This document shows positions 1-64,000 of a stretch of DNA of 64,000 nucleotides, piece by piece; the first letter of the stretch is position 1, and each line of letters starts with the position of its first letter. Under the pieces are notes generated by a model. It was not told where the DNA came from and did not search any database. It worked only from the letters and a program-made list of their open reading frames with translations. The translations under genes and the position numbers were made by a program. Source of the stretch: an uncultured Planctomycetota bacterium (GTDB lineage Bacteria > Planctomycetota > Planctomycetia > Gemmatales > Gemmataceae); contig CAWAMR010000018.1 of assembly GCA_963783095.1 (NCBI GenBank), positions 9,920 through 73,919 on the forward strand, given 5' to 3'.

Positions 1-250
1 CAATTCGGAGTTGATTGACGGCAAAATCCGTCACGAGGACGGCACGGTTGCCAGGCTCCTGCGAAAGTTCGACGATAATAGGAAGCTGGTCGATGAATTG
101 TTCCTGATGTTTTATTCCCGGCTGCCGACCGATCATGAAAAGTTAATTGTGGCCGAGCACTTCCGCAAATATCCGAATAGCCGAAGAACTGCTGCGGAAG
201 ACTTGGTCTGGACGATGGTGAATAGTAAAGAATTTTTGTTTAATAGATGA
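1..250 (+). CDS. DUF1553 (PSD1-like) family protein, C-terminal fragment; gene continues upstream of window
   Basis: ORF frame open from window edge. The C-terminal motif ...LVDELFLMFYSRLPTDHEK... is typical of planctomycete DUF1553 proteins, which precede DUF1501 genes. Confidence 0.6.
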   Translation, partial: NSELIDGKIRHEDGTVARLLRKFDDNRKLVDELFLMFYSRLPTDHEKLIVAEHFRKYPNSRRTAAEDLVWTMVNSKEFLFNR

Positions 251-260
251 AAATAATATT

Positions 261-387
261 CTAACCACAGAGTCACAGAGGACACAGAGATGACAAAATA
301 CACCGCACACGTACATTGATGTTCATCCCTGTGTAATCTAGGCTTCATGTTTTGTCTTCTCTGTGACCTCTGTGACTCTGTGGTTAG
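261..387. repeat. Inverted repeat with ~29 bp arms built from tandem CACAGAG-like units and a ~67 nt spacer, lying between the DUF1553 stop and the DUF1501 start
   Basis: ctaaccacagagtcacagaggacacagaga ... tctctgtgacctctgtgactctgtggttag; the arms are reverse complements with 1-2 mismatches. Confidence 0.6.
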
Positions 388-414
388 GTTGATTTGAAAC
401 TGTTGGAGCAAATC

Positions 415-1743
415 ATGCCGAAAATATCCCCTGCTTTCTGCGATGGCTTGACCCGTCGAGACGCTCTTCGACTCGGCACTGCGGGTTTGTTCGGCATGGG
501 CCTGTCGCTTCCGCAACTGCTCGCGGCCGAGTCGCAGAAGCCCCACGCGCCGGCGAAGGCGATGATCTTTCTATTCCTTCATGGCGGCCTGAGCACCATG
601 GACACCTTCGATCTGAAGCCGGATGCGCCTGTCGAGTTTCGCGGCGAGTTCAAGCCGATCGCTACCAATGTCAAGGGAGTCCAGGTTTGCGAACACTTGC
701 CCAAGGTCGCACAGGTCATGGATAAAGTGTCGCTCATTCGTTCCTTCCGCCATCATAACTCGGATCACGGCGCTGCCGATCACTATATGCTGACCGGTTA
801 CTTTCCGGGGCCAGGGTTCAATCCCAATCTCAACCCCAACAATCAACGGCCCGCGCACGGCTCCATCATCGCGCGAAAGCTTGGCCCGCGCGGCTCCGTT
901 CCGCCGTACGTTTGCTTGCCGAAGATTCATCCCAGTTTCGGATCGGCCTATTTGGGTGCATCGGCCGCCCCCTTCGGCGTCGATGGCGATCCCAATGCAC
1001 CGACTTTTAGCGTCCCCGACGTGCTGCCGCCGATCAACATCGCCGCGAATCGCCTATCGGATCGCCGTCGGTTATTGACCGAGATGGATCATCTGCAACA
1101 AAGCGGTGAAGTCGCCGCCAATAAGCATGCCGAGACGGTGGATGTGTTTCAGAAGAAAGCATTCGAGTTGATGACCTTGCCCGCAGCGAAGAAAGCGTTC
1201 GACATTCAGTCCGAATCGGCGAAGTTGCGGGATGCTTACGGCCGGCATTCCCTGGGCCAGTCCTGCCTGATGGCCCGCCGGCTGGTGGAAGCCGGGGTAC
1301 GCTGCGTCTCGGTCGACCATAGCAACTGGGACACCCACGACAACAACTTTGCCATCTTGAAGAATAGCCTGGTTCCTTCGCTCGATAGTGCGATGTCAAC
1401 GCTGTTCCGCGACCTGGCCGATCGGGGAATGCTCGATTCCACACTGGTCGTCATCACCGGCGAGTTTGGCAGAACGCCGCGGATCAACAAGAACGCGGGC
1501 CGGGATCACTGGGGACCATCCTTCACGGTAATCCTGGGTGGCGGCGGGATCAAGGGTGGTCGAGTCATCGGCAAATCCGATGCGCGTGCGGAACGACCGG
1601 CCAGCGATCCTTTTGGTCCGGAAGATCTCTCGGCGACGATGTATCAACTACTGGGTATCGATCCGAAAGAGGAATTTCATACTCCCGACGGCCGGCCTGT
1701 TGCGATCGTCAACAACGGCAAGGTGATCCACGATTTGCTGTGA
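415..1743 (+). CDS. DUF1501 domain protein (sulfatase-like fold) with Tat-type signal
   Basis: N-terminus MPKISPAFCDGLTRRDALRLGTAGLFGMGLSL (twin-arginine motif). Motifs FDLKPDAP, HGSD, DHWG and a C-terminal GRP...I are typical of DUF1501. ATG at 415 is preferred over the TTG at 394. Confidence 0.85.
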   Translation: MPKISPAFCDGLTRRDALRLGTAGLFGMGLSLPQLLAAESQKPHAPAKAMIFLFLHGGLSTMDTFDLKPDAPVEFRGEFKPIATNVKGVQVCEHLPKVAQVMDKVSLIRSFRHHNSDHGAADHYMLTGYFPGPGFNPNLNPNNQRPAHGSIIARKLGPRGSVPPYVCLPKIHPSFGSAYLGASAAPFGVDGDPNAPTFSVPDVLPPINIAANRLSDRRRLLTEMDHLQQSGEVAANKHAETVDVFQKKAFELMTLPAAKKAFDIQSESAKLRDAYGRHSLGQSCLMARRLVEAGVRCVSVDHSNWDTHDNNFAILKNSLVPSLDSAMSTLFRDLADRGMLDSTLVVITGEFGRTPRINKNAGRDHWGPSFTVILGGGGIKGGRVIGKSDARAERPASDPFGPEDLSATMYQLLGIDPKEEFHTPDGRPVAIVNNGKVIHDLL

Positions 1744-1775
1744 CCAAAACTGGGCGAGCAGGGAACGGGAGCGGT

Positions 1776-2120
1776 ATGATCGTCGGCGCACATGTTGTCA
1801 TCTACAGCACGAATCCCGATGTGGACCGCGCTTTTCTGCGCGACGTGCTCAAACTGACACACGTCGACGTGGGTGGGGGTTGGCTGATATTCGGTTTGCC
1901 GCCGTCAGAAGTCGCCGTCCATCCCTCGGAAAAGAGTGATGTGCATGAGCTATATTTGATGTGCGACGACGTGCAATCGTTCATTGTCGAGATGCAGCGA
2001 CACGGTATTGCGTGCGGCCCAGTTCAAAGCATGGGCTGGGGCTTGTTGACACAGTTGACGCTGCCGGGCGGTGGGAAACTTGGGGTTTATCAGCCAAGGC
2101 ACGATCGGCCAAAGGCATGA
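1776..2120 (+). CDS. VOC/glyoxalase-bleomycin-resistance family small protein
   Basis: MIVGAHVVIYSTNPDVDRAFLRDVLKL...GGGWLIF...VHELYLMCDDV pattern, ~115 aa. Start could instead be the GTG at 1740, which overlaps the upstream stop. Confidence 0.5.
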   Translation: MIVGAHVVIYSTNPDVDRAFLRDVLKLTHVDVGGGWLIFGLPPSEVAVHPSEKSDVHELYLMCDDVQSFIVEMQRHGIACGPVQSMGWGLLTQLTLPGGGKLGVYQPRHDRPKA

Positions 2121-2169: not shown

Positions 2170-4550
2170 ATGCAGCGCAGCATTAGCCGAGCCACGCGAA
2201 TCAGGTTTCTCTCAATTCTGCTGACTTGCCTTGCAGCAACTCCGCTGCGAGCGGAGCAGCCGGTCGGCGTTTACCTTTTTCCCGCCGGCGCTCAGCGCGG
2301 CACCTCTCCCGAGATCCTCATCGGCGGCTTGTTTCTCAACAAAACCTGCAACCTGGAAATCCTGGGTGCCGGCATCGAAGCACCCAAACAAATCCATCGC
2401 GCTATCTCACCCTGGTTCGAGGGGCCGGTCCTGCCCTTGCCGGAGTCGCAGCGACAAGAAGATTATCCGCGTGCGATGTCGGCGAAGTTCCAGATTCAAC
2501 CGGATGCCAAGCTGGGTAGTCGGGAAGTGCGGATGTGGACTTCGCAAGGCGTCACCGCCCCCCTGAAGTTCATCGTTGGCGACTTGCCGGAGATTGTCGA
2601 AAAGGAAATCGCCGGAGAGCCGATCCCCGTTCCGGTTAAGGCTCCGGTAACGATCAATGGCCGGATTTTTCCGCACGAAGACATCGATATTTACACGGTC
2701 TCCCTGAAGAAGGATGAGACGATTACCTGTTCCGTCGACGCCGCCAAGCTAGGCTCACCGTTGCAAGCTCATCTTGAAATTCGCGATGAGCAGCAGCGCC
2801 GACTCGCCGAGAGCAGCGAGTGCCGGTATGCCGAGCCTCGACTGGCTTTCACAGCGCCGAAACAAGGAATTTACCAAATCGTCATCCGCGACCTTCGCTT
2901 TGACGGTGGATCGGCGTTCGTCTATCGCCTGACCATCCTGACGGGGCCATCGGTTGCGCGAGTCTTCCCGCTGGGTGCCCGGCGCGGCACCCAGACTCGA
3001 TTTGAGATTTCCGGACCCTCGCTTCGGAACAACATCGCGAGCCTGACCATCCCGCAAGATGCTCCCTCGTCCTATCGGACTCGGTTTCACGTTGGCGAAG
3101 AGGACACGAATCCCGTCGTACTGGATGTGGACGATCTCCCGGAGATCGTCGAAACGCAGCCTGCAACGGATCCGATCAAAGCCAATTTCCTTTCCGTGCC
3201 CGCGATTGGCAACGGCCGAATTTCCAAACCCGGCGAGATCGATGACTGGAGTTTTTCCGCTCGAAAGGGCGACGTGCTCGACATCGAACTTCGTGCGGCC
3301 CGGCTCGGTTCTCCTCTTTTGGGAATGTTGACGATTGTCGATCGATCGGGCAAAGTGCTTGCTCGTGACGAACCCGGAATTAGTTCCCATCCATCACTGC
3401 GATTCACTGCCCCACAGGATGGGCTTTACCGCATTCGGGTCCAGGATCAGTTCCGCTCGCGCGGTGGTTCCGACTATTCCTATCGGCTCCGCGTCGATCG
3501 TCCCAAACAAAGTTTTGCACTGCATTTCAGCACGCCGTCGCTGACTGTTCTCCAGGGTGCTCAGACACCTTTGAAATTGACGGTCAATCGAATGGGTGGG
3601 TTCACCGGCCCCATATTCCTGCGTGTTGAGGGAGTTCCTCCGGGAATCACGCTGCCAAAAGAGTTGCTGATCGCCGCGAATCAAAGTAGCGTCGATGTTC
3701 CACTGAAGACGGAAAAAACCATACCGCTCGGTTCGTCGATTATTCGAGTTACCGGCACGGCGTTTTTGCCCAATGCGTTTAGCTCCATCCCGCTTCCGAT
3801 GCAGCGGGAAGCCGTTCTTGACGCGTATAGTGATGATCTGGCGTTCTCGCAGGTTCGTCTGGTTGTTGCGATCGCTACACCCTTCAAAATCGTCGGTGAA
3901 TATGTGTCCAACCAGGTGCCGCGCGGGACGATGTACACGCGCCGATACAAGATCGAGCGCGCAACGGCTTCACAGGGCCCATCGAGATTGCGATGGCGGA
4001 TCGCCAGGCCCGTCACCTGCAAGGTGCGGCAGGGCCAACGATCATCGTTCCGGCAGACAAGAATGAATTCGAATATAACGTGCAATTGCCGCCCTGGATG
4101 GAAACCGGGCGAACGTGCCGCGTTTGTGTGATGGGAACGGGTGTCATCAAGCAAAGCGACGGCACCGAGCATGTGGTGGTGTTCTCTTCTCGCGAGCAAA
4201 ACGATCAAATCATCGCGGTCGTCGAACCCGAAAGACTCGCTCTGATTGTGGATCGCACCAGTTTGCGGGTCGAAGCGGGACAGAAAATCGAGATTCCGGT
4301 TGAGATTCGGCGAGGTGAAGGATTGAAGGGCCCCGGACGGCTCGAATTGATCGTGCCGGAAACCATCTTGGACATTCGCGCAAATGCGGTGACAATTCCA
4401 GCCGATTCGGGTCGAGGCACTTTGACGGTCAGCTTCGGACCCAGCGCCAAAGGGCCATTTCCCGTACCGATTATCGTTCGCGCAACCGTCGATGATCGCG
4501 GCAAGCCTGTGGTGGCGGAAGCGAAACTCGACCTCGTAGGCAGTCGATAA
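2170..4550 (+). CDS. Large secreted protein with at least three PPC (bacterial pre-peptidase C-terminal)-like domains; apparent frameshift near 3965-3990
   Basis: Signal peptide MQRSISRATRIRFLSILLTCLAATPLRA. Repeated G(R/N)I...DIDxYTV/DDWSF...LGSPL...YR(L/I)RV modules. ORF 2071..4131 ends in an R-rich non-protein-like tail, whereas the overlapping ORF 3993..4550 in another frame is protein-like. Confidence 0.6.
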
Positions 4551-5631: not shown

Positions 5632-6544
5632 ATGGATCCATTTGCAGCGCTGGTTCCTCCCCTCTTGACGGCTGACCTTCCAGGCATCGGCGGACAAATC
5701 AAGGCCCAGCCCGAAGATTTCGAGGTCGAGGAGATACCGGCTTACGAGCCGGGCGGCAGCGGCGATCATCTCTTTTTGTGGATCGAAAAGCGCGATATGG
5801 GGCGGAATTCTTTAGCCGGCAGATCGTGCGCGACTGGGTATCGCGCCCGGCGACGTGGGCATGGCGGGGTTGAAAGATCGTCATGCCATCACCCGGCAAT
5901 ATGTTTCCGTGCCGGCATCTGCGGAAGAGAAACTTTCGCAATTGGAAGGCGATGGGATTCGCCTTCTTCGACATGCCCGACACAACAATAAACTTCGACC
6001 CGGCCATTTACGCGGCAATCTTTTCCGCATCTTGATCCGAGACGTCGATCCAGCGCTGGCTCCGAATCTGGAAGCAATCCTTTCTCGCATCGAACAATTC
6101 GGGCTTCCCAATTTTTATGGCGACCAGCGTTTCGGCAAGGACGGTGAAACCGCCCACCTGGGAATGGCCCTTCTCAAGGGCGAGGGGAAGCCGATCCGAG
6201 CGCCCTTTCTGCGAAAACTCTCATTGTCGGCGGCGCAATCTCTGTTGTTCAATGCCTATCTCGCACAGCGCATGAAAGATGGTTTGATGCGAACGGTGTT
6301 GCCGGGAGATGTAATGGCCAAATGGCCGGCAGGAGGGATGTTCACTGCTGAGGATGTCGAAGTGGAGCAGGTGCGCGTCGATGTGCGTGAAACCGTCCCT
6401 GCGGGACCGATGTTTGGTCGAAAGACATTCCCATCAAAAGGAGTTGCCGCCGAGCGAGAAGCGAAAATTCTCGAAGACGCAGGGTTGACGAAGCGATCGT
6501 TTCGACGGCTTTGGAAAACTGCTGATGGGAACCCGACGACATAA
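5632..6544 (+). CDS. truD: tRNA pseudouridine(13) synthase TruD; single apparent +1 frameshift near 5825-5830
   Basis: [31 protein letters not shown] in ORF 5632, then [28 protein letters not shown] in ORF 5855 in another frame. Together these match the conserved TruD N-terminus including the catalytic-Asp region GLKDRHA. Confidence 0.8.
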
Positions 6545-6778
6545 TTTCGTCTATGTGGGCGAAGTCCAGACGGCATGGGAAGCGGAAGGTGTCAGATTAT
6601 CGTTTAGTTTGCCTGCGGGCAGTTATGCGACGGTGTTGTTGTGGGAAATCACTCGCGGAGCGATGCCGGAGATCGGGGAAGGGTGATACGACCTGGCGGA
6701 ATGATTGGGCCTATCGCAACTATCGCAACAACAATTGCGTCGATCAGTGCTTCTTGTCACAATAACTATATATCGGGA

Positions 6779-7078: not shown

Positions 7079-7084
7079 TTTGAC

Positions 7085-7732
7085 ATGCAGGTTCCTCAGC
7101 TCTGGATCGTTGCTGGTCCGAATGGCGCAGGCAAAACGACTTGTGTGCAAAAAGAGCCAATTTCGCAAATTCTGCCCAGTGTTACTTTTCTCAATCCCGA
7201 TAATTTGACCTTGGAAAAACTGGTTGCAAGGGGATATTCTGGATTCGCCGATGCTCCTGTCGATATCCAAACCAGCTTGTTTTTTGAATCTGCGGATGAG
7301 GTTTTCGCTCGACTAACGGACGCATTATCCCAAAATCAGTCAGTAGGCGTTGAAACGGTTCTCAGCAGCGACAAGTATCGTCCACTGGTTGAGTTGGTCG
7401 AGGAAAAAGCCGGATTTGTCGGACTCATCTATATCACCTTGACATCTCCTGCAATTGCTCAGCAGCGCGTAGCCCAACGGGTCCGACGTGGTGGACATGG
7501 GGTTCCCGATGACAAGATCGAGAAGCGATTCTTTCGGTCGATCGAGAATTTGACCTGGTTCGCAAGTCGTGCAACGGCGTTCTGGGTAATAGACAATTCG
7601 GATTCTGATCCGAACAATCCTCCTCAGCTGATTGCGTTCGGCAAACGTGGAGTTCTCCATTTTCTCGATCTTCAAGCAAATCCCGCAATACAGTCGGCAT
7701 TCGCGATGTTTCCTCGCCATGAGCCGAGTTGA
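7085..7732 (+). CDS. Zeta-toxin family P-loop kinase (PezT/zeta-like)
   Basis: Walker A IVAGPNGAGKTT and the zeta signature ...RVRRGGHGVPDDKIEKRF... Confidence 0.75.
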   Translation: MQVPQLWIVAGPNGAGKTTCVQKEPISQILPSVTFLNPDNLTLEKLVARGYSGFADAPVDIQTSLFFESADEVFARLTDALSQNQSVGVETVLSSDKYRPLVELVEEKAGFVGLIYITLTSPAIAQQRVAQRVRRGGHGVPDDKIEKRFFRSIENLTWFASRATAFWVIDNSDSDPNNPPQLIAFGKRGVLHFLDLQANPAIQSAFAMFPRHEPS

Positions 7733-8529
7733 GTCTGAACCACGAAGCCACCAATTTATGGGACACCTTTAGAAACTACTTTTGCGGCATCAAACGTCCA
7801 ATCACTCGCCGAGCCGTTGCCGGCGTTGCCTGGCGAGTATATTTGCATCAATCGCCCCTCGATTATGCACATTATAATAGATTGGTGCAAGAACAACCGA
7901 TTTTTGTGGACGTTCTCTTGGCAAGAAGGCTGTCGTACGAAATGTGGCATGGGCAATTGTCATCGCCTCCGCGGAATCACAAGATGAAATTCACCGAATC
8001 CGACATCCAAACTCGCTTTGAAAAAGCACGCGACGAAGCGATGGAGTTGCTTTCCAGGCTGGAGGTAGCCAACGGCCGTAAACCAGAAAAACTGAGAGGA
8101 TTAACTGGCTGGATTTATGAGCAGACCATCCGCAGTTGCTTGGAAGAAGAATTGGAAATCCTGGGGATTGCACCCGAGATCAGTGAGCAGGTGCGTTTGG
8201 GCAAGACAGGGCGCATCACCCTTGATCTGGTCGTTGGTCAAGTTGTAATCGAAATCAAATATGGCGGTTTCATTGGCTCAGCGGATCCAGAAAAATATCG
8301 AAAATACAGGGAACAGAGAACCGAATGTTACAACTTGCTACAAGTTTTTCAGCAGTCAGAGCCGCGACCGTTAGTAGGAAGCGATGTGGCCGTGAACAAA
8401 ACGCTACAACTTGCTACAGATTTTCAGGTTGCTCAAAAACCGGGAAATGCAAACGAACAATCTGGTGAACAAAATATTACAATTGGATCAGCGTTACAGA
8501 AACCAACCGTGTGGAAGTCGTTTTCCTGA
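7729..8529 (+). CDS. Hypothetical protein, third gene of the zeta operon (start uncertain)
   Basis: ORF starts with a TTG overlapping the zeta stop (TTGA), but an internal ATG at MKFTESDIQ is also possible. No family recognised. Contains a 23 nt internal direct repeat. Confidence 0.4.
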   Translation: MSLNHEATNLWDTFRNYFCGIKRPITRRAVAGVAWRVYLHQSPLDYAHYNRLVQEQPIFVDVLLARRLSYEMWHGQLSSPPRNHKMKFTESDIQTRFEKARDEAMELLSRLEVANGRKPEKLRGLTGWIYEQTIRSCLEEELEILGIAPEISEQVRLGKTGRITLDLVVGQVVIEIKYGGFIGSADPEKYRKYREQRTECYNLLQVFQQSEPRPLVGSDVAVNKTLQLATDFQVAQKPGNANEQSGEQNITIGSALQKPTVWKSFS

Positions 8530-17125: not shown

Positions 17126-17246
17126 GGTTTGTTGGCCTCTGTTTATTGTTGTTTTTCCGCGATGCAATAAAGAAAGCGTTCGCCGCGGAGGAACAGGTCC
17201 TGGCCGGCGAGCGCCGCCGAGGCGCTGAAGGAGTCGTCGAGGCGGT

Positions 17247-26030: not shown

Positions 26031-26210
26031 GTTTCAAGTTCCAAGTTGGAGACCTGCCAGCCTTCAGGTTTTCAACGTGGAACTTGGAACTTAACGCGCT
26101 CTTAGGAGAAGATATGTACGTGTTGGGAACTTGAAAAGCGTATCACAGTTCCAGGTTGAAAACCGGAAGGATTACCGGTCTTCAACTTGGAACTTGGAAC
26201 CTGGAACTCA
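26015..26210. repeat. ~190 nt structured element of tandem TTCCAAG/CTTGGAA-type heptamers forming nested long-range stems
   Basis: gttccaaattccaagtttcaagttccaagttgga pairs with cttcaacttggaacttggaacctggaactc, and inner ttttcaacgtggaac pairs with gttccaggttgaaaacc. Lies 3' of the rimI-like gene and 5' of the WD40 gene. Confidence 0.5.
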
Positions 26211-26691: not shown

Positions 26692-27024
26692 CCAGCGAAT
26701 ATGCACGCGAAGCTGTTGTTCCCTCTGTAATCGACCCGTGCTCATCGGCGGAATCCTCCCTCGCACGGAACACCCCGTATTCCTACGGTGGTTCTGCGAA
26801 CCGCTCCCTGGTTCGACTTGGCGGGCAGAGCGTTGCTGTTTTCCATCCAGCGAATTCCCTTGTCAAAAGGGGTGGCATCATGCACTCAATTCCCGGATAT
26901 TAACAGCCCCCCCGAACTGCCTCAAGTCCATCTCCACCCACATTGAGCGGAGAAGCCTATTTCTGTCATAAATCCAGACGATCGCTTTATGCTACGATCG
27001 TCTCCCCCAGCTCTCATAACTATG

Positions 27025-36225: not shown

Positions 36226-36449
36226 GAACACAACTCTTTGGCAACTTCGTCAATCCTGGCATGAGATCCTGATCGGGTTGGGCGTCTTCATGGCCGCCGG
36301 CAGGTTGCGTTTGACGATATCGGGGATCGGTGCCGAATGACCCAGAGTGGCTGGGTATTTCACCCCGGCAATCGCCGTGTTTTGTAAGAATTTCCCTTGT
36401 GCGATCTTCGATTCAAGGTATCGTCTCGCTCCTGGAAAGGACACCCTCA

Positions 36450-52565: not shown

Positions 52566-53825
52566 CTATCGTGTGCCGACTTCTCGCTTCTCCTCTATTT
52601 GAGACCTCTCCGTCGCGGAGGCGGGAATGACTTCGCTTTCGGCCAGTCCAAGCCCAGCGCGGATTTCTACGAAATTCAACACATCTCGCAAAGTCAGTAG
52701 CCCCACAAGTTTCCCGTTATCCAGCACGGCCAATCGACTCTCCCCGCTTTCTGCCAGTTTTCGCCAGGCGCGAATGACCGATTGGGTCGGGTGGAGAACG
52801 GGTAAAGATGATCGTCGCTCGATGACATCCGATACGTGCAACTCATCCCATTGAACCGCGCTCGACTTCTTGAGCCGCTCGTAGAGTCAGCAAGCCCAGA
52901 AATCGACCGTCCTCGACCACGGGATAAGCCTTGTGAGAGTATCGCGTGAAATACCGGTACACGGCTTCGTGTACCGTCAGTTGCGAGTCAATGGTAATCG
53001 GGTTGCGGTTCATGATCTCCGCAACCGTAACCCCGTGCAATAACTGCTGAAGTTGAGCATAGCCCATGCTCGATTGGGCAGCGCTTCGTAAAAACATTCC
53101 CAGGAAGAAGAGCCACAAGCCTCCGATCAAGTTGCCCCCAATTACCGAAAAAAATCCGCCGATGAACATCAGGTACGAAAAAAGTATGCCAATTCCGCCG
53201 GCAATGCGCGTCCCGGTCAGGTAGTCGCCGGTGGCACCCCAGATGATCCCGCGCAGGATTCTTCCACCGTCCAGAGGAAACGCAGGGATGAGATTGAAAA
53301 TCAACAGCACCAGGTTGATCATTGTCAGGTAAAACAGCAAGCCGGCGGCACCTAGGGCAACCAATGATTCGCCTGTTAACTGGAATTGGTTGCCTTCAAA
53401 CTCCCAGGAGATGTTGTTGGCGCTGAGCACCAGGGTCAGGGCAACCCCAAAGAGGCCGATCAATCCGAGGGTGACGAGCGGCCCGGCCGCGGCAATAGCG
53501 ATCTCGTGACTGGGTTTCTTGGGGTCGCCTCGAAATTCGGCGATACCGCCAAAAACAAAGAACCGAATTCCATGAACCGATACTCCCAATCGCCGCGCAG
53601 CAGCGCATGACCCATCTCATGAAGAAGCACTGAACCAAAAAGGGCCAGCGCAGCGATCACGCCCAAAGCCCAGTACACCTCGGGTTTATTCTGATATTGC
53701 GGAAGAGTTTCGGGGAAATAACCGATGGAGAGCGTCCAAACGATCAGAAAGACGGCCAGGAACCAACTCCAGTGCAGCCGAAACGGTATTCCGAATATTT
53801 TCCCAAGATAAATGTCGCCTGACAT
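52566..53825 (-). CDS. Site-2 protease (M50 family) with C-terminal CBS domain pair; two apparent frameshifts (~52845, ~53590)
   Basis: HEMGHAL (HExxH) in ORF 53460..53825; NLIPAFPLDGGRIL and TM core in ORF 52843..53589; CBS residues in ORF 52566..52841. Confidence 0.75.
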
Positions 53826-54353: not shown

Positions 54354-54929
54354 ATGGACTCCGATGGCACGGCTTCTGCCCCGAACCTGGAGCGCTTTCG
54401 GGAATACCTCCGCCTGTTAGCCAGGCTTCAGTTGGATCCTCGTCTCCAGGGAAAAGTCGATCTCTCTGGTGTCGTGCAGCAAACCTTGCTGGAAGCCTAT
54501 CAGGCGCAGGAACAACTGCGGACCATGGACGATGCCCGGCAGGCGGCCTGGCTGCGACGAGCTTTGGCAAACAACTTGACCGATGAAGTTCGACGGCTCG
54601 GCCGAGTATCGCGCAATCTGAGACTCGAGCAATCTCTTGAGGCCGCTTTGGAGTCCTCATCGTGCCGGTTGGAAAGTTTATTGGCATCGGAACAGAGTTC
54701 ACCCAGCGAGCAGTTGATCCGAAACGAACAACTGTTGCTGCTCGCCAATGCGCTGAACCAGTTGCCGGATGACCAGCAAACTGCGGTGATCCGGCATCAC
54801 CTGCAAGGCTGCCCCCTGGCGGAGATTGCACAGGAGCTGAACCGAAGTAAGGGTGCCATCGGTGCACTTCTGCTTCGAGCCATGAAGAAGCTGCGACAAT
54901 TGCTCGAAGAACCCCATGCGGATGCATAA
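54354..54929 (+). CDS. ECF-type RNA polymerase sigma factor
   Basis: Region-2-like DLSGVVQQTLLEAYQ and region-4 HTH LPDDQQTAVIRHHLQGCPLAEIAQELNRSKGAIGALLLRAMKKLR; its stop overlaps the kinase start (TAATG). Confidence 0.75.
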   Translation: MDSDGTASAPNLERFREYLRLLARLQLDPRLQGKVDLSGVVQQTLLEAYQAQEQLRTMDDARQAAWLRRALANNLTDEVRRLGRVSRNLRLEQSLEAALESSSCRLESLLASEQSSPSEQLIRNEQLLLLANALNQLPDDQQTAVIRHHLQGCPLAEIAQELNRSKGAIGALLLRAMKKLRQLLEEPHADA

Positions 54930-57900
54930 TGGATTACGCCACAGAAACTTTCGACGACCGGGAAGAACGGCTCGGCGAGCTTTTTTCGGACTGGCTTGAA
55001 GTTCTGGAGTCGGGCCAGTCGCCCGATCGGCAAGAATGGCTGGCCCGTTATCCGGAATATGCCTCCGAGCTGGAAGAGTTTCTCGCCGATGAGGACCGAA
55101 TGCGGTCTCTCGCAGCACCGTTGCGAGAAGCAGCCCAGGCCGCATTCGTCGCCACGCCTTTGCCCTGGGAAACCCTCTCTCCACAGTGTCTCTGGAAGAA
55201 CCTCAACCCGGTTCTTTTGGAGACTACGAGTTGTTGGAAGAAATCGGGCGAGGCGGCATGGCGGTTGTTTTACCGCGCCCGGCAAAAGGGGTTGGAACGA
55301 TTCGTTGCCCTGAAACTCTTCCGCACCGATCGACTCGGTCGAGTGACGGATCTCGAGCGCCTTTCGGCATGAGGCGCAATCGTCGCGCAGCTGGATCATC
55401 CTCTGGTTGTGCCGATCCACGAAGTGGGGGAACACCAGGGGTATATCTATTTCACGATGAAGTTGATCGAGGGTGGAAGCCTCGATGCCCATCTGGCTCG
55501 AATTCATCGCCGACCCTGCGCCGCTGCCCGCCTGATGGCAGCTATCGCCAGGGCTGTGAATCATGCTCATCAGCCAGGCATTCTGCACCGCGACCTCAAA
55601 CCTTCCAATATCCTCGTCACCGGATCGCTCAATGATCCTCTCGACCTTCTGATTCCGCACATCAGTGATTTTGGTCTCGCAAAGCGTTTAGACACCGATA
55701 TGAGTCTCACTCAAACCGGAGCGGTGGTGGGCACTCCTGCCTACATGGCACCCGAACAAGCTGCGAATGAAAAGAACGCCGTCACAACCGCGACCGATGT
55801 CTATGGCCTGGGAGCTATTCTTTATGCCTTACAAACGGGAAAGCACCCTTCCGAGGCGAATCGGTCCTCGAAACATTGGCCCAGGTAAAGGAACGCGAAC
55901 CCGAACCTCCCGGGCGGATCAATCCGAAGGTGCCGCGCGATCTTGAGACGATTTGCTTGAAGTGCCTCAGAAAGGAGCCGCTTCGACGATATGAATCGGC
56001 GTCGGCTCTGGCCGATGATCTGGAACGCTGGCTCAAGGGAGAACCGATCTGGGCGCGGCCGGTCGGTCGGGTGGAACGGCTATGGCGCCGGTGCCGCCGG
56101 CAGCCGATCCAGGACGCCGTCAGCGGGACTAATCCTGGCAGTAGTAGTTGGATTCATCCTGGTCCTTTGGCAATGGCGGCGAGCCGAGGACAACTTCGTC
56201 CGGGCAGATGAGAACTACCTTTCCGCAGAACGGCACCGAGAGGAGGCCGCAACGCGCGGCGTCGAGTCGGACGAGAGCTTCCGTCTGGCGCATGACGTGG
56301 TCCGGGATTTTACCGGAATCCTGGAGGAAAGCGGGCAGCTTGAAAACCGTGGATTGGACCCCATCCGACGAGAACTGCTGCTGAAAGTACAAAGCTACTA
56401 CCGGAGGTTCCTCGAACAGCGGAAACATGATCCCACACTCAAGCTGGAACTTGCCCAAGCTTCGGCAACTCTTGCCGATATCATCCGTCAGATCGGCACG
56501 CCGCAAGAAGCTCTCGAAGCCTACGTAGAAGCCAGAGACCAAGCGCCTGAAGCTGGCGCAGGACGATCCCAATAATGTGTCGATTCAACTGGCTCTGGCT
56601 GAATTGCATAACCATCTAGGATCGGTTTATGCCTTGCTTGGCCGGCCGGAAGATTCTCTTGAGTCCATGAAAGAAACGAGACGAATACTCGATGCCCTCC
56701 TGATCGCGCATCCGGATGACAGTTCGGTTCAGGTTAAACTGGCCCAGACACTTCACAATGTGGGAATGCATCACTCGAATTCCAACCGTGTGCAGGAGGC
56801 GATGCGATGCTATGCCGATGCCGAACAGATTCTGGAAAAACTGCTCAACTGGCAGCCTGACGACGTTAATGTTCGGAGAAATCTGGCCAACACCCTCAAT
56901 AGCATAGGCCTAGCCTATTCTCGGCAGGGCAAGATTACGGATGCCTTGCAGAACCTGTGCAGGGCCGTTGACCTGAGCGATCGGATCGCGCAGTCCAATC
57001 CCAACGATCGGCTGTTGCAGCACGTCTTCGCGTTTTATCTATGTAATCTTGGCGAATGCCTTTGCAAACTTGAGAATCCAAAAGAGGCGCTGACCCATTT
57101 CAACCGTGCCCGAGGCATCCTCGAAGACCTGGCATGCGAACCCATCAATCGCATCCATCCAGGCGACTCTTGGGAGGTGCTGTTCGCTTATGGCCCGCGC
57201 CTCGATCGATGTCAATGATCTTGATCGGGCAGCAGAATCCCATAACCGCGCCAAGGCGGTTTTCAGGCAACTGACAAAAGACTACCCGAATAGCCTCGAA
57301 TATCCGTATCGGCTGATCCTGGTTTTGATCGAGATCGCTCAAACCCATACCAGGTTCAAACAACTCAAGCAGGCAGATGATGTGTATGAGGAAGCTCGCG
57401 ACGTCAGTGTTCGGCTCGTGGAGATGTTCCCGGACGAGTCAAAATACCTCGCCCAACTGGCGGGAATTCTTCACGATTTGTCGGCCGGGCAAGCGGATCA
57501 GGGTCGGTTCGGGGATGCACGAGAGATGATTCTCCAGGCCATCAAGCACACAACTCGACTGCTGGAAAAAGACCCATCCGATGTTAATCAGCGACATCAA
57601 TTGAGCAACCATTATGCTTTTCTCGCCTATTTCAACCGCGAGCTGGGACGGATCGATGAGGCAATAGACGCAGCGGACAAACGGCTGAAACTGTGGTCGA
57701 AGGAGCCGATTGAGTTGTATGGTGTCGCAGCGGACTATGCCCTCACGGGTGCTGCTGCCAAAACCGACATGAAGTTGCAACTGCGTTGTGCCGATCTCGC
57801 TATCGAGACGCTTCATCGCGCGATCAAAGCCGGCTATCATGATGTCGAGCACGCCCAGACGAATCCCCAACTGGACTTTATACGTTCTCGGCCGGAGTTC

Positions 57901-57954
57901 CAGAAACTGCTGACCGAAATGAGCAAGATTCCGCGACAACTGAAGAAAGAATAG
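54929..57954 (+). CDS. Ser/Thr protein kinase with TM segment and C-terminal TPR repeats, ECF-coupled; at least five apparent frameshifts
   Basis: [18 protein letters not shown] (Gly loop), [11 protein letters not shown] (catalytic loop), DFGLAK, and GTPAYMAPE, spread over ORFs 54929, 55186, 55409, 55876 and 55991. TPR in ORFs 56577..57218 and 57106..57954. Confidence 0.7.
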
Positions 57955-58136: not shown

Positions 58137-59631
58137 TTACTTTCCGAACGCATAAAGATGTTTGGCCGTTCGGATGTACAAAGTGTTGTCGGCGATCGCC
58201 GGGGTTGCTGCCACGCGCTCGCCCAGTTTCGGGTTCTTGACGACAACCTCCGGCGCATCGGTGCCTGCCTTGAGAACCGTTACCGTGCCGTCGTCGAGCG
58301 TCGTGAAATAAATGTTGCCGTTGGCAGCCACGGGCGAGGCATAGTATCTGCCGGCGGCAACGGCTCGATCGAGGAGGTAGATCTCTTTGCCTGACTTTGC
58401 ATTATAGGCAGTCAGCAACCCGCCATCCTTCACCATGAGAAGCTGGTTGCGATAGACGATCGCGGAAGGTACGTAGGGTAATCCCTTGGTTTTCTTCCAG
58501 AGTAAATGGGTCTTGCTCACATCTCCGGTTCCACCCGCCTTGAGGGCAAATGCGCTGTTTTTCGATGCCGACATGTATTTCATGGAAGCATCCCACTCGT
58601 CGCGGGTCAACTTGCCGTCTTTGTTCGTATCGTTGTTGTCGAAGAACCCTTTGAGCATGGTTTTTTCGGACCCGGGTTTGGTCAGATACCCCTGCTTCTG
58701 CTCACCTGCCTGCTTGAGGATGTCGTCGAAGGACGGCATCTTGAAATCTTTCTCCTCGGGATCGCCCGGCGACCAGCCTGCAAAGAACAGAGTACCATCG
58801 ACCACCGAAGGAGATGCGCAGCACGCAGAAGGCATTCCGGCAACCGACCATTTCTCGTCCCCCGTCTTCAGATCGTAGCCGATCATCCGTCCGAAACCTG
58901 CGGCAACCACTTGTTTGCCGGCTGGGGTGTCCCAGATAACCGGCGTGGCAAACGAAGTGGGAGATTGGCGTTTCTTTTCCCATTTCAACTTCCCGGTTGC
59001 GGCGTCGATCGCCAGGATTTTCGCATCCTTGGTTTCATCGCGCACAAGGACGACGACCCCGTCGGCCAGCACCGGCGAAACGCCCGTGCCGAAGTCCGCG
59101 AACGTGACAGCGGTCGGGAGGTCGTACTTCCAGAGTTGCTTTCCGTACAGGTCATAGCAGAACAACCCGCACGAGCCAAAATACGATACAATCCGCTCCC
59201 CATCGGTCACGGCAGTCGACGCCGCCGGGCTTCCTTCCGTCTTGTGATATGCTTCGATCTTTTTTGCGGGTGCTTCAGCGCCAGACCTCTTTTCCATCGG
59301 TACGCCGATAGGCGATCGTATACAGTTTCCCATCGTCAAACGCAGTAATGATCAGGTTCTCACCTGCCACGATCGGTGATGAGAAGCCGCTTGGAACCGG
59401 AACCTTCCATTTGACATTCTTCTGAGGGCCTAACTCTATCGGTGGTTTTTGATCGTCCGCCACTCCCGATCCACTCGGTCCACGAAACTGCGACCAGGCA
59501 AGAGGCCCCTCCGCAGCATGTGCTGACCGCGCGAGCAATCCGAGTAGCGCAATAGCTATCAATCTCTTCATCACTATTCCCTCCGAAGTTTTGGATGCCG
59601 CCCGGGAGAGGTGGGGGATTCCTTGAGACAT
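58137..59631 (-). CDS. Secreted PQQ-like beta-propeller protein with an inserted EF-hand-like Ca-binding loop; apparent frameshift near 59300
   Basis: Signal MKRLIAIALLGLLARSAHA; blades (ITAFDDGKLYT, TLFFAGWSPGD); DTNKDGKLTRDEWD is a canonical EF-hand loop pattern. Confidence 0.7.
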
Positions 59632-59911: not shown

Positions 59912-60316
59912 ATGATTCGCTTGAGTGCCAAGGCAGTTGTTGTCCTTTTCTTGGCGAGCCACGCTCACGCGCAGCCTGGGATTACCGGGCGCGGCATCAA
60001 CGGCGGGATTCAGGGCGGCTTTCAAGGTCAGCCGGCGATGGGGATCACCGGCATTCAAGGCCGCCCAGCCATGGGGATAAACGGAAATTTCAATGGTGGC
60101 ATCACTGGAAATCCGGCGATGGGGATTAACGGTACCGGGATCACCGGAATGCCGGCCATGGGGATCAATGGCGGCATGCCGGGAAACATGACAGGCAATC
60201 CTGGAATGGGAATGACAGGGAATGGCCCCGGCAACATGATGGGTAACGGCAATATGGGGATGCCGGGCGGCATGCCCGGAGCCGGCGAGAAGCAGTGGCA
60301 ATGCACGAGTTTGTAA
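59912..60316 (+). CDS. Small secreted Gly/Met-rich repetitive protein
   Basis: Signal MIRLSAKAVVVLFLASHAHA, then PAMGI(T/N)G repeats and GNMTGNPGMGMTGNGPGNMMGNGNMGMPGGMPG. Confidence 0.55.
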   Translation: MIRLSAKAVVVLFLASHAHAQPGITGRGINGGIQGGFQGQPAMGITGIQGRPAMGINGNFNGGITGNPAMGINGTGITGMPAMGINGGMPGNMTGNPGMGMTGNGPGNMMGNGNMGMPGGMPGAGEKQWQCTSL

Positions 60317-60359
60317 AGCGATCGTAGCGACCGGACCCACGCCTCCGAAAATTGACAAA

Positions 60360-60594
60360 TGTCCCCAGTGCGGTACGCGCATCGGCTACTATCAGGACGG
60401 CACGGGCAAGCACGACATGCCCGATTCGGAAGGCTCGATCGGCAACAGCAAGGTCTTGAAGATTGTCCTCGGCGTTGTCGTCGGCGCGGGCGTCGTGATC
60501 GGGATCATTGTGGGAATCGTGAAGGGAACTTCTTCCGGGAAAAAGAAGAAACGCCGAAAACGTATCCCAAGCAATGACTGGTAAGGCGCATTTC
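60360..60594 (+). CDS. Possible small CPxCG-motif membrane protein with polybasic tail; no canonical start codon found
   Basis: Frame reads ...KCPQCGTRIGYYQDGTGKHDMPDSEGSIGNSKVLKIVLGVVVGAGVVIGIIVGIVKGTSSGKKKKRRKRIPSNDW*. May be joined to the upstream gene by an indel, or spurious. Confidence 0.25.
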
Positions 60595-60686
60595 TTGCTG
60601 ACCAAAGCCCTACACAAAATCGAAACTCGCGTCATTGATCAACGAGGAGAGAGTTTCTGTCTCGATACCAGGATCAAAATTCACAT

Positions 60687-60881
60687 ATGCCGTTCACGTT
60701 GAAATGTCCCAATTGTCGGGCCGGATTAAACTCTCCAGTCGAAATTCCCACTGGGAAATCGATCCGCTGCCCTCGATGCAAAACGGAATTCAAAGTCACA
60801 AATCAGACGGGGAACAACGACGACGTACAGCATACCGCCAAACGCAAAAACCCCGTCGGCAGCAGCGACTTCCAAGGCTAA
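60687..60881 (+). CDS. Small zinc-ribbon protein
   Basis: MPFTLKCPNCRAGLNSP...IRCPRCKTEF (two CxxC pairs). Confidence 0.55.
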   Translation: MPFTLKCPNCRAGLNSPVEIPTGKSIRCPRCKTEFKVTNQTGNNDDVQHTAKRKNPVGSSDFQG

Positions 60882-60935
60882 TTCCACCTCGGAGCAATTG
60901 AAGGAAACCGAATCAAGGAAGAAGCGGCAATAAAG

Positions 60936-61988
60936 TTGAGGAGGATATACCCAAAGCTCCGAAACGCGATCGAGACGAAGATAATGATGGCGGTGAACGT
61001 CGCAATTCCAAAGATGAGGAAAAGGATCGACGGAGGCGATCCAGGGAAGAAAATGACGAAAAACCACGTTCGAGACGCCGGCGCGAAAGACGAGAGCGAC
61101 TCGGAAGATCTCGATGATGAAGATCGGCCCCGCTCAAGGCGTCGCAGCAGGTCCGATGACGACGATCGAAATGCCGATCGCCGAAGTAGGGACAATGGCC
61201 GCGATTCCAAACGCAAGAAAAAGCAACCCAGGAAATCGAGAACGGTGTGGATCGTTGCCGGTGCGGGTTTGCTTATCGGTGTCGCATTGTTGGTCTGGTT
61301 TCTCTTCCTGAGCGGCAACAGCTTTGACAGCGAAATAATTGCCCTGCTGCCTGCCGAAGTAACCGATGTGTACGGGATCGAAGTCGAAGATCTTCTGTCG
61401 GCGGCAATTGACAAAGACAAAGAGTTGCTTCGTTTCGAACACCCCGAAATCGCCGAATTTGGGCTTGAACTGGACCAGGTCAGGCGAATCATCGTCGCCG
61501 GCGGGAAAAATCTCGGCATGATCATGGTGATCCGCCTGACCAGGGATGCCGGCAAGGAAAAACTGAGCAAAGACTCGACCGAAATGAAAGAAAACGGCAA
61601 AACCTATTACAAGTCCAATAAGGATAGTTCTTGCATCAGCCTCGTATCCGGCAAGTTGATCGTGGCGGCCGAACGAGAGGACACGATAAAGAGCATTCTC
61701 AAGCAACCGGAAGGCAAGGTCCAAATCTCCGAAGACCTCCTGTCACTCGTCAAGAAAGCCGCGAAGGGGCACAATTGGGTTGCGTCCATTTCCGAAGGAG
61801 CGGGACACATGGGATTCATGCTCGCGCCCGAAGAGTTGAAAAAACTAAAAGGAAACTATGGCTATACGAAGTTAAGCGGCCGATCCGTGGATTATCGATC
61901 GTTCATTGTCTGCGACAGCGAAGGAAACAGCCTCGAAGATCACCGACGCCTGTCAGCATCACATCGACGAATACAAGAAGAAAGCTGA
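60936..61988 (+). CDS. Membrane protein with highly charged (D/R/K/S-rich) N-terminal region, one TM helix and a C-terminal globular domain
   Basis: TTG start; ...DDEDRPRSRRRSRSDDDDRNADRRSRDNGRDSKRKKKQPRKSRTVWIVAGAGLLIGVALLVWFLFL... Same frame as the zinc-ribbon ORF, separated by one TAA. Confidence 0.5.
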   Translation: MRRIYPKLRNAIETKIMMAVNVAIPKMRKRIDGGDPGKKMTKNHVRDAGAKDESDSEDLDDEDRPRSRRRSRSDDDDRNADRRSRDNGRDSKRKKKQPRKSRTVWIVAGAGLLIGVALLVWFLFLSGNSFDSEIIALLPAEVTDVYGIEVEDLLSAAIDKDKELLRFEHPEIAEFGLELDQVRRIIVAGGKNLGMIMVIRLTRDAGKEKLSKDSTEMKENGKTYYKSNKDSSCISLVSGKLIVAAEREDTIKSILKQPEGKVQISEDLLSLVKKAAKGHNWVASISEGAGHMGFMLAPEELKKLKGNYGYTKLSGRSVDYRSFIVCDSEGNSLEDHRRLSASHRRIQEES

Positions 61989-62276
61989 AAACGGCACGTC
62001 CCGAGCAATGCAGAATCTGGACGAGCAGAGCAAACGGCTCTATCGTCGCCGCCGCCACGCGAGCGATTAGCCGGAGCGGACGGGTCGTGGAGTACTCTGT
62101 TACGCAGGAAATGAAGGAAGGGTCGGCGGCGAATATCGGATTTCCGGGACGACCCAGCCGTGTGAACCGGCCAGCCGCAGTTCCCAAAACAATGAACTGG
62201 ATTTGCCTGCGAAACCCGGAAGAACGCGGGATGAAATGGATCGCTGCCTGCAGCATAAGTTTCTTTGCATGCTGCT

Positions 62277-62570
62277 TCACGACAACTTTCTGATGGTAAA
62301 ATCAAGGGAAAGGATCAACTTCAAGGTTTCGAGCGCTGTTTTGCGATCATACTCCTTCTCGGACTCAGGCAGATCGGCATAGGGTACCAGACATGGATGC
62401 TTCTTGCCGGCGTCATCGCGCATTTCGCCATAGGTCCAACCTTGATTGATCCGCTGTAATGCCCAGACATCGTGGTTATTCTCGGCCAGTTTTTCCTGGA
62501 GTTCCAGGATATCGGCAGGGAGTGTAATGTGAGCAGTGTCAATGGGCCGAGGATGATAGGTGATCCGCAT
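62277..62570 (-). CDS. RyR (ryanodine-receptor-type) domain protein
   Basis: ...AENNHDVWALQRINQGWTYGEMRDDAGKKHPCLVPYADLPESEKEYDRKTA matches the bacterial RyR-domain pattern. Confidence 0.6.
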   Translation of the reverse strand: MRITYHPRPIDTAHITLPADILELQEKLAENNHDVWALQRINQGWTYGEMRDDAGKKHPCLVPYADLPESEKEYDRKTALETLKLILSLDFTIRKLS

Positions 62571-62667
62571 CAGGTGATTCTCCTATAGCTTTCTTCCCTG
62601 GCTGCAGGGCAGCTCGCCTTCACCAACAGAAATTTTACCATATCACCGACCTTTCTCCCGTCAACCC

Positions 62668-63410
62668 TCAGTTGCCGTCGAACGCAGAGGTGCCATGACG
62701 AGTTGAATAAGAGCAGCGCGTAAGATTGCGTGCAGCCAGATTCGTGTGTTTCGCCAGTCGAATGCACTCCGGAATGAGTTGAGGGTAGCGAAGGCAATTC
62801 CAGGCCACCCGCCACGGAGAAACCTCACCACCGGAAAGGAGCTGAGTCAATCGGGGCGATAGAGCGTCATGGACGGTATCTGAAATCGCGCGCACGGCCG
62901 CAAACGATATGCCGGCAGCATGACATCGGCGAGCGATCGTGGCCGATTCCATATCCACCGCGACAGCTCCGAACTGGCGAGCGATTTCGCGTTTCTCTTC
63001 GCGCGACGCCACGAGATGATCGGCGCAGAATAGCCGAGTTTTGGGATCGCCGAGCTGTGCCAACCACTCTGAGCCAGTCGAATCCGCCATGGTGCCGGGT
63101 CTCACGACATCACCGATATTGAGCGATTCGGTGTAGGCCGCCGGCAAAGCCTGAACTGATGATGAGTTGGGGTTTTGTGTGGCACAGTAACCAGTCAACG
63201 CGCAGGGTTAATGCGAGCGTTCCCCACTCCTGGAGCCAGGATCAGCACGCGGCGATCGGGAATTTCACGAAACTGGGCCAGCCAGACTGGAAAAGGTGTC
63301 GCATCCACGCGCAGGCGCTGAGTCGGATGCACGCAGAAACGGCTTGGCTTCACGCTTGAGCGCAAAGCAAATACATATGCCCGCAAAGTTTTCAATTGCA
63401 GTTCCGGCAA
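62668..63410 (-). CDS. hpnG: Hopanoid-associated phosphorylase/nucleosidase (PNP/MTAN family, HpnG-like); apparent frameshift near 63195
   Basis: RVLILAPGVGNAR in ORF 63195..63410, then ...AVAVDMESATIARRCHAAGISFAAVRAISD in ORF 62668..63198. Adjacent to hpnH. Confidence 0.55.
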
Positions 63411-63419
63411 CGAACGAAC

Positions 63420-64000
63420 TCACGTCACCTGCCACATCAGCATCTTGAAGGTATCACCGAACTGGGCGTTCACTCCCAGCGCAGCGGAAGGTTCGTAGCC
63501 GCAGTGGACCATGCAGTGTTCGCAGCGAGGGTCGTTGCCGTAGCCGTACTCTTCCCAGTGCGTATCGTTCATGAGACCCTCAAAGGTCTCGTGATGCTCA
63601 TCGGTGATGAGGTAGCAAGGCCCCTTCCAGCCTTTGACGTTTCGAGTTGGATTGCCCCAGGCCGTGCATGTCAGCTCGCGTTTTCCTTGCAGAAATTCGA
63701 TGTAAATCGGCGAGGTCGCCATCTTATACTTCTTGGTCAGATGATCGGCTTCCTTGAATTTTTCACGGATCTCATCGCGCGTAAGGAAGATCTGCGACGC
63801 ACCATTGGGATTGGTCTTCTGAACCGCTTCATACCCATACGCCGGCGACATCATGAAGCCATCGACGCCGAGTTTCGTCAAGTAGCCGAAGAGGAGATCG
63901 AGTTCCTCCATATTCGTTTCCTTGTAGACCGTCGTGTTGGTGCAAACGAGGAAACCGGCTTTCTTCGCGGCCTTGATTCCCTCGACGGCTTGCTGAAACA
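63420..64000 (-). CDS. hpnH: Adenosylhopane synthase (radical-SAM, HpnH), C-terminal DUF3463 part; continues beyond window
   Basis: ...CEHCMVHCGYEPSAALG... and the frame stays open to the window edge (…KAAKKAGFLVCTNTTVYKE upstream). Confidence 0.6.
   Translation of the reverse strand, partial: FQQAVEGIKAAKKAGFLVCTNTTVYKETNMEELDLLFGYLTKLGVDGFMMSPAYGYEAVQKTNPNGASQIFLTRDEIREKFKEADHLTKKYKMATSPIYIEFLQGKRELTCTAWGNPTRNVKGWKGPCYLITDEHHETFEGLMNDTHWEEYGYGNDPRCEHCMVHCGYEPSAALGVNAQFGDTFKMLMWQVT

Follow-up and report, generated by a model that had tools for sequence, protein, structure and literature searches.

The window analysed here, a 64,000-nucleotide stretch of a metagenome-derived contig (GenBank assembly GCA_963783095.1, contig CAWAMR010000018.1) from an uncultured planctomycete of the Gemmataceae, has a G+C content of 55% and contains genes for DUF1501, DUF1800, DUF1559, and PQQ-propeller proteins, a Ser/Thr kinase with TPR repeats (STK-TPR), and hopanoid genes. 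Many of these genes are interrupted by frameshifts, which are the subject of this analysis. The listing of open reading frames (ORFs) contained many short ORFs that overlap on the same strand where single genes were expected. An exact-sequence look-up showed that the gene calls of the window are already public on one 356,022-bp NCBI/ENA contig, where they include a truncated ATPase stub of 378 amino acids (aa) and a DUF1501 stub of 363 aa. Because truncated gene calls are public, the deposited record carries the same frameshifts.

Frameshifts were detected through the continuity of Pfam profiles across adjacent ORFs, through tblastn with homologues, and with a codon-usage Viterbi model that includes a frameshift state. 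As a control, the same self-training of the model was applied to 46.5 kb of related Gemmataceae DNA (contigs L001 and L004). The model identified 20 frameshifts in the window at a penalty of -10 and 30 at a penalty of -8, compared with 0 and 2, respectively, in the DNA of the relatives. Modelled shifts can be mislocated by up to ~50 nt, and the model missed several shifts proven by homology as well as closely spaced compensating pairs, which makes the modelled number an underestimate. Three calls at closely spaced gene junctions (2070, 39171, and 54927) were recognised as false positives on inspection and excluded; the candidate at 54927 proved to be an ordinary TAATG stop/start overlap in a three-frame reading. 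Scoring of codon usage for each ORF was dropped since real and shadow ORFs could not be told apart by it. The relatives L001 to L004 were used solely as controls because their ATPase neighbourhoods are not syntenic with the window. A preliminary description of the window had reported at least 25 single-base frameshifts in otherwise conserved genes, and nearly all of those that it listed were confirmed by Pfam, tblastn, and the gene model; the real density is about twice the reported figure, and some of the errors involve two bases.

Other assemblies of the same population were reached via 90%-identity clusters of the window proteins and, from these, their contigs. Six contigs, from the ENA assembly ERZ25039528 and from Logan assemblies of two runs (Table 1), together span 46.3 kb (72%) of the window. 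Between the window and the ERZ contigs there are 199 small indels and 285 mismatches, and where the window has a frameshift within the overlaps, the frame-restoring length is nearly always present in the other assembly. In a hybrid test, single indel alleles or adjacent pairs of them were swapped greedily and kept if the score of the gene model rose (gain threshold, 2 nats). With 49 alleles swapped into the window, the number of modelled frameshifts dropped from 17 to 2, the two residual calls being a TAATG junction and a site in the site-2 protease (S2P) gene (53590-53600) where both assemblies are shifted. In the reverse test, 68 swaps to the window allele reduced the modelled frameshifts of the ERZ contigs from 25 to 4. 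About 49 indel errors are attributed to the window within the 46.3 kb covered by other assemblies, and the number of small indels in the whole 64 kb is estimated at ~50 to 60, roughly one per kilobase.

Where three sources overlap, the frameshifted sequence is the odd one out. The Logan contig L054 is 100% identical to the ERZ contig L053 over 1,268 bp, and the window departs from this shared sequence by four indels and two mismatches. At three sites, both the window and the second assembly are wrong, in different ways: ~11432 in the DUF1800 gene, ~53595 in the S2P gene, and 59282 in the third PQQ beta-propeller gene (PQQ-3). The frameshifts are thus private to each assembly, which supports the earlier attribution to draft or long-read assembly error. 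Error density is uneven within ERZ25039528: L050 and L052 have ~5.5 indel differences per kb relative to the window and L053 and L055 have ~3 per kb, a gap that is consistent with uneven coverage.

The gene for a P1B-type heavy-metal ATPase, which carries a C-terminal SPFH/Band_7 domain, has its Pfam match split over three frames (E1-E2_ATPase 3-134; E1-E2_ATPase 104-179 with Hydrolase 1-61; Hydrolase 53-190). Alignments by tblastn run through frames 2, 3, 2, and 3 and switch at 30562, 31073, and ~32775, in agreement with the three shifts described earlier. The shifts were placed by exhaustive single edits against 12 homologues; in this procedure the assignment of the nucleotide is intrinsically ambiguous within 1 to 3 nt, and no homopolymer test was therefore built from homologue data alone. 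After repair, the TGES, CPC, DKTGT, and GDGINDAPAL motifs are intact. The four segments delimited by the shifts are 73, 73, 57, and 42% identical to homologues, compared with 70-82, 69-82, 57-67, and 39-50% among intact homologues. Two of the shift sites (CAGCGCGG at 30562 and CCGGCGCAGG at 31073) resemble in context those covered by a second assembly. The best homologues are Gemmataceae (Planctomycetota) proteins with 57-67% identity, and all 120 of the best (783-1,154 aa), with the exception of one partial entry, carry PF00122, PF00702, and PF01145. Judged by the domain content of these sequences, the fusion of the ATPase to the Band_7 domain is genuine, and the earlier warning that apparent fusions might be artefacts does not apply to it. 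Proteins with this architecture are mostly ~1,050-1,130 aa long in the Gemmataceae. Directly after the ATPase gene, relatives have two more Band_7 genes, in place of which the window has a convergent class-III aminotransferase gene.

The same warning was justified for the tandem DUF1559 genes. Here a 691-aa ORF exists because an extra T at 38243 reads the first gene into the second; this T is the sole indel between the window and L051 (2.2 kb, 99.91%, with one mismatch besides), L052 sides with L051, and the other assemblies have separate products of 348 and 185 aa. The 691-aa ORF is a false fusion, and the frameshift that had been assigned to a second DUF1559 gene is best identified with this extra base. 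The reverse strand of 37092-40177 encodes three DUF1559 (SBP_bac_10) paralogues in tandem, all with a membrane segment of ~150 aa at the N terminus.

Several other genes are interrupted as well. The DUF1800 match is divided between two frames (profile 1-328 and 340-419), and tblastn segments occur in frames 1, 2, and 3, with switches at ~11432 and 11492 that account for the two shifts noticed within 60 nt. A by-eye comparison with homologues indicates that at ~11432-11435 the window and L050 are garbled in different ways. In the second DUF1501 gene (DUF1501-B), the Pfam match stops at position 335 of 390, and tblastn alignments change from frame 3 to frame 2 at ~12957 (at 12959-12962 in more than 20 homologues). 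A frameshift had been proposed at ~12952 and is real, but the repair suggested for it differs from the sequence of the other assembly, which at 12952-12956 reads GGCGCGCATCCCGAC (G-A-H-P-D) and not gaccatcccgac; at 12956, the window has GGCGA-CAT where the other assembly has GGCGCGCAT. The TruD profile is split between 5632-5991 (profile 7-62) and 5816-6541 (from 67 onward, in another frame). The alleles of L050 restore the frame, and the repaired protein yields one unbroken Pfam match (profile 7-188, 259 bits). The gene for the PPC-domain protein has a modelled frameshift at 3958, where L050 is without the two additional bases and the frame is restored. For the zeta-toxin-like kinase, the model called a shift at 7721 at a penalty of -8, and the score was raised by a swap to the L050 allele. 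In the first PQQ beta-propeller gene (PQQ-1), every modelled frameshift disappeared after swaps to L050 alleles. An intact 434-aa homologue (~32% identical) aligns to it by tblastn in frames -2, -3, -1, and -2, switching at the indel sites, and the PQQ_2 match of the repaired protein crosses a junction. For the cyclase-linked relatives L056 to L061, the DNA was too distant to align, and solely the PQQ protein was used.

Farther along the window, the WD40 gene has a modelled shift at 25752 that is abolished by allele swaps; L055 contains an intact 341-aa version, and repair adds one WD40 repeat at the N terminus. L055 alleles also restore the frame of the GNAT acetyltransferase gene (modelled shift at 26295) and of the DUF11-repeat gene (27532 and 28001), whose DUF11 domains are scattered over three overlapping ORFs. 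The two shifts reported for the S2P gene correspond to modelled shifts at 52887 and 53563, and the repaired protein has an M50 profile match (2-202) and two CBS domains; at 53590-53600, the assemblies are shifted by unequal amounts inside GCGCTG(G)CGCGG. The STK-TPR gene had been credited with at least five shifts. Multiple shifts are indeed present, at ten indel sites, nine of which have the frame-restoring allele in L053, where the gene call is 833 aa. Before repair, the long ORF holds Pkinase profile positions 51-203 only, and afterwards the kinase domain gives an unbroken match (1-259 of 263). A stop codon at 55370 results from two compensating indels, an extra C at GAGCGCC and a base missing at GGCGCAA 20 nt on. 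The shift in PQQ-3 was called at a penalty of -8; at 59282 both assemblies appear short by unequal amounts, with a residual frameshift of L053 at 59265, and the repaired PQQ_2 match reaches profile 7-144. In the two ORFs without known function, modelled shifts (60296 and 61911) coincide with L053 swaps, and the window is contradicted by the Logan contig L054 too at 61921 and 62048. The long ORF of the hpnG-like gene holds only positions 148-202 of 233 of the PNP_UDP_1 profile, whereas the gene is intact in L053 (248 aa), and L053 and L054 concur against the window at 62720.

Table 1. Interrupted genes of the window with the positions of their errors, followed by the contigs of other assemblies used for comparison
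Feature	Window positions	Strand	Details
PPC-domain protein	2170..4550	+	Extra GC at 3957-3958 (GCGCGC vs GCGC)
truD	5632..6686	+	Bases missing at 5802 and 5829 (both GCGC/CGCG); extra T 6500 (TTT vs TT); extra C 6674
Zeta-toxin-like kinase and next ORF	7085..8529	+	C missing at 7731; weaker site
DUF1800	10465..11837	+	Frame 1 to 2 at ~11432-11435 (CCGCGCTGG); frame 2 to 3 at 11492 (extra G in GGTGGCGCGG)
DUF1501-B	11877..13105	+	One base missing and one miscalled at 12955-12956; L050 has GGCGCGCATCCC
PQQ beta-propeller 1	17143..18502	-	Indels 17253, 17268, 17963, 18092, 18120, 18261
WD40 protein	25143..26170	-	Indel cluster 25742-25748; also 25153, 25973
GNAT acetyltransferase	26208..26706	-	Extra G at 26291
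DUF11-repeat protein	27025..28872	-	Extra A at 27509 (GGCGCA); C missing at 28010
P1B-type ATPase-SPFH/Band_7	29804..33119	+	Extra base 30562-30564 (CAGCGCGG); missing base 31073 (CCGGCGCAGG); shift 32772-32775
Unannotated ORF region	36315..36869	+	Candidate errors 36356, 36473, 36778; model basis only
Two tandem DUF1559 genes	37092..39167	-	Fused as 691-aa ORF; extra T at 38243 (TTTT vs TTT, beside GCGC)
Site-2 protease (Peptidase_M50 and two CBS domains)	52566..53825	-	Extra C 52857-52861 (CGCGC); ~2 extra bases 53590-53600 (GCGCTGCTGCGCGG)
Ser/Thr kinase-TPR	54929..57954	+	Indels 55181, 55268, 55360, 55379, 55501, 55518, 55837, 56114-56115, 56546, 57132
PQQ beta-propeller 3	58137..59463	-	Shift at 59282 (CAGCGCC)
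Two ORFs without known function	60038..62070	+	Extra T 60310; indels 60835, 60926, 61086, 61921, 62048
hpnG-like nucleoside phosphorylase	62668..63415	-	Extra bases 62720 (CAGCGCG), 63130, 63199 (CGCGC)
Contig L050	2012-18520		ENA ERZ25039528; 98.25% identity
Contig L055	18521-29180		ENA ERZ25039528; 99.51% identity
Contig L051	36193-38428		Logan, run ERR10755938; 99.91% identity
Contig L052	36305-43678		ENA ERZ25039528; 98.6% identity
Contig L053	52271-64000		ENA ERZ25039528; 99.38% identity
Contig L054	61767-63035		Logan, run ERR11523671; 99.45% identity

Homopolymer or GC runs had been suggested as the context of the errors, and this can be refined to the motif GCGC, at about half of the sites, and to homopolymers of 2 to 5 nt, miscounts of which make up most of the window errors outside GCGC. 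In the alignment of the window with L050, GCGC is the top 4-mer around indels, being present within 2 nt of 28 of 90 (4 expected; p = 1e-15), and CGCG is second. Within 4 nt of GCGC, this alignment has 28 indels and 49 mismatches per kb, compared with 3.9 and 8.7 per kb in the rest, and 57% of the 96 GCGC sites in 2012-18520 are discordant. Many of the mismatches (79 of 186) have C/G in the window and T/A in L050, with an overall ratio of transitions to transversions of 100:86, and 83 of the 186 fall in CpG (18% expected). Among the 49 window-error sites, GCGC lies within ~3 nt in either allele at 26, against a background of 5% (p = 7e-21), and the motif is often destroyed in the window by deletion (for example, at 5802, 12956, 56114, and 57132). 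Extra bases are more frequent than missing bases (32 versus 17). The window contains 347 copies of GCGC in its 64 kb.

The broken genes are an artefact of data quality and not biology. We are highly confident that the frameshifts arose as errors in the assembly consensus rather than as mutations and that they comprise a GCGC-centred class and a short-homopolymer class. On this reading, indels of one and two bases were left in this Gemmataceae contig by basecalling, assembly, and polishing. About half of the errors may have arisen because the nanopore signal was distorted by a modified base, most likely a methylated cytosine at GCGC, and most of the remainder are miscounted homopolymers. Flye-style contig names (contig_179597 and similar) and the error spectrum point to Oxford Nanopore as the source platform, and the GCGC-centred errors suggest that the motif is methylated in the organism. 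A standard route to metagenome-assembled genomes that uses nanopore-only Flye assembly with one round of Medaka has been described (PMC12313526).

It is possible, although unlikely, that the errors are generic long-read indel noise caused by low coverage or insufficient polishing, with no DNA modification and with GCGC merely a hard sequence for the basecaller. About half of the sites are ordinary miscounts of short homopolymers, some of the GCGC sites are run-length errors in (GC)n (for example, 3957 and 12956), and the variation of error density within one assembly, seen between L050 and L053, is what coverage-dependent noise would produce. However, the contig L004 of a relative (contig_34016_np1212, a name that hints at a nanopore assembly), in which GCGC occurs 256 times, is free of modelled frameshifts, and the GCGC effect therefore looks specific to the organism. 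The same GCGC sites are also garbled differently in the two assemblies, as expected of a systematic rather than a random error, and the enrichment of mismatches in CpG, with many C/G versus T/A differences, resembles that of methylation-induced errors (PMC11610573). A further proposal, improbable in our estimation, is that the hot spots report a real GCGC-specific modification that is unknown to the basecaller and possibly other than 5-methylcytosine or, in a weaker variant, that sites shifted in both assemblies hide a real lesion. If such a modification were real, the specificity of restriction-modification systems could be inferred directly from flawed assemblies.

Explanations that treat the frameshifts as properties of the organism fare worse. 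Massive recent pseudogenisation in a genome undergoing decay would fit the interruption of many conserved ORFs and the occurrence of the same frameshifts in the deposited public record, but inherited lesions should be shared, and contigs that are 98.2-99.9% identical are without the frameshifts of the window. Neutral decay yields nonsense codons in numbers comparable to frameshifts, whereas across the 46.3 kb not one of the 285 mismatches improves the gene model by removing a window stop codon, against ~49 indels. The damage consists of indels only, and the sequence after the shifts is as constrained as that of intact homologues, with catalytic motifs kept. Every segment of a kinase gene with ten indels still encodes recognisable protein, which is irreconcilable with decay or recoding, and half of all sites fall at one 4-nt motif. 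Genome decay is very unlikely. As little credence can be given to strain-level indel polymorphism or phase variation, in which each assembly would represent a strain with its own slipped-strand variants. Some diversity may exist, as the assemblies differ by 0.1-1.1% substitutions, and short homopolymers, on which slippage classically acts, are found at some of the sites. Yet this explanation needs ~50 private frame-breaking indels in one assembly and ~70 in the other within 46 kb, where divergence does not exceed 1% and nonsense changes are absent; runs of 2 to 5 nt are far below the size of phase-variable tracts, housekeeping-type genes are struck indiscriminately, and over 1.27 kb no difference separates L054 and L053, which have separate sources. 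Restoration of the proteins in vivo by programmed ribosomal frameshifting or other recoding would account for downstream frames that are still coding and for nothing further. Homologues are uninterrupted at the shift positions (120 ATPases and ~45 DUF1800 loci, mostly with DUF1501), the sites are not the same in different assemblies of the population, and the shifts are of +1, -1, and +/-2 in a variety of unrelated contexts. To our knowledge, up to ten shifts per gene are incompatible with any known efficiency of recoding, including that of prfB and dnaX, and such an origin is barely conceivable.

Some observations weigh against the attribution to consensus errors and GCGC methylation. The verdicts were reached from assembled consensus sequences, reading frames, and homologues; the ERZ contigs are themselves error-rich, and at sites covered by two assemblies the verdict followed from homology and the logic of reading frames. 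Neutral alleles may be present among the 49 that were swapped, and three candidates in the unannotated region (36356, 36473, and 36778), where swaps to the L052 allele raised the coding score, are contradicted by the Logan contig L051, which agrees with the window there and so makes them doubtful. One assembly represents 29.2-36.3 kb and 43.7-52.3 kb, ~28% of the window, and the ATPase sites within this part were judged by homologues only. The window ORFs scanned with Pfam contained no methyltransferase domain, and published reports of methylation errors stress mismatches more than indels.

The window also contains other features. An orphan ORF of 605 aa at 8545-10362 is intact and has a strong coding signal but belongs to no Pfam family, and scans of genome contigs and metagenome contigs found no relatives of it. 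A second long intact ORF (591 aa) with a strong coding signal and no Pfam family occupies 41035-42810. Secondary blastn matches reveal two adjoining direct-repeat copies of ~100 bp, ~85% identical, at 14470-14680, in each of which the assemblies differ in GC-dinucleotide length (14466 and 14577). On the reverse strand at 14721-16915, a protein with an AHH-family HNH/EndoVII nuclease domain is encoded beside a SUFU-like protein, an arrangement that resembles a polymorphic toxin/immunity pair. A likely toxin-antitoxin pair, intact in both assemblies, lies at 23804-24819 on the same strand and consists of a PIN_3-domain protein adjoining an HTH_17/MerR-like protein. At 60038-60584, a repetitive ORF rich in Gly, Met, and Asn (GMxGN and PAMGING types) runs on into a Cys-containing segment and a membrane helix and has no family match. 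The hopanoid cluster (window 62277-63998; L053 6001-9910) comprises, in direct succession in L053, a squalene-hopene cyclase, hpnH (radical SAM and DUF3463), and hpnG. In L053 a small RyR-domain protein follows hpnG, which in the window is broken by three indels.

ORF-based annotation is badly fragmented in the window and presumably throughout the 356-kb contig and the genome bin to which it belongs. Among the deposited proteins are the truncated ATPase and DUF1501 stubs and at least one false fusion, and counts of genes and pseudogenes, coding density, and "novel" short proteins or fusions taken from the record would be misleading. A few hundred residual differences or indels can inflate the number of predicted coding sequences by hundreds (PMC11649196). 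Because of the GCGC bias, extra coverage or ordinary pileup polishing cannot fix half of the errors, and repair requires methylation-aware basecalling, short-read polishing, or homology-guided correction. A by-product of the analysis is a testable hint of GCGC modification, with HhaI-like specificity, in a planctomycete.

Decaying genomes of the Mycobacterium leprae type accumulate frameshifts together with nonsense codons, deletions, and insertions of IS elements, share lesions among close strains, and show relaxed constraint. The window resembles the genomes of M. leprae or of recent obligate symbionts in that many conserved genes are interrupted, but the nonsense codons, deletions, IS insertions, shared lesions, and relaxed constraint are absent from it. 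Programmed ribosomal frameshifting is exemplified by the +1 shift of prfB and the -1 shift of dnaX; as in those genes, the downstream frame in the window encodes the rest of a functional protein, but there is no conserved slippery site in the window, and a single gene can contain up to ten shifts. Homopolymer indels in long-read assemblies truncate or split predicted proteins (PMC11649196). Watson and Warr (2019) reportedly described the same effect. The window is comparable to insufficiently polished long-read assemblies in its error density, ~1 per kb being within their range, and to assemblies with homopolymer errors in that length errors of one base yield more ORFs and proteins that are shorter than their homologues (PMC11649196). 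It differs from the latter in that only about half of its errors are in homopolymers, with runs of 2 to 5 nt, and the dominant class is motif-specific. The closest parallel may be the modification-mediated consensus errors of Oxford Nanopore assemblies, which are recurrent, motif-centred, lineage-specific, and not removed by Medaka (Chiou et al. 2023, PMC10687267; Lohde et al. 2024, PMC11610573). Those reports emphasise substitutions, whereas in the window indels at the motif are prominent and break genes; the motif here is GCGC, and both the platform and the modification are inferred. In common with those errors, the errors of the window centre on a short motif, survive polishing, and make independent assemblies disagree at the same loci. 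The confusion of purine with purine and of pyrimidine with pyrimidine in those reports may have a counterpart in the C/G versus T/A differences of the window, although its transitions barely outnumber its transversions (100:86).

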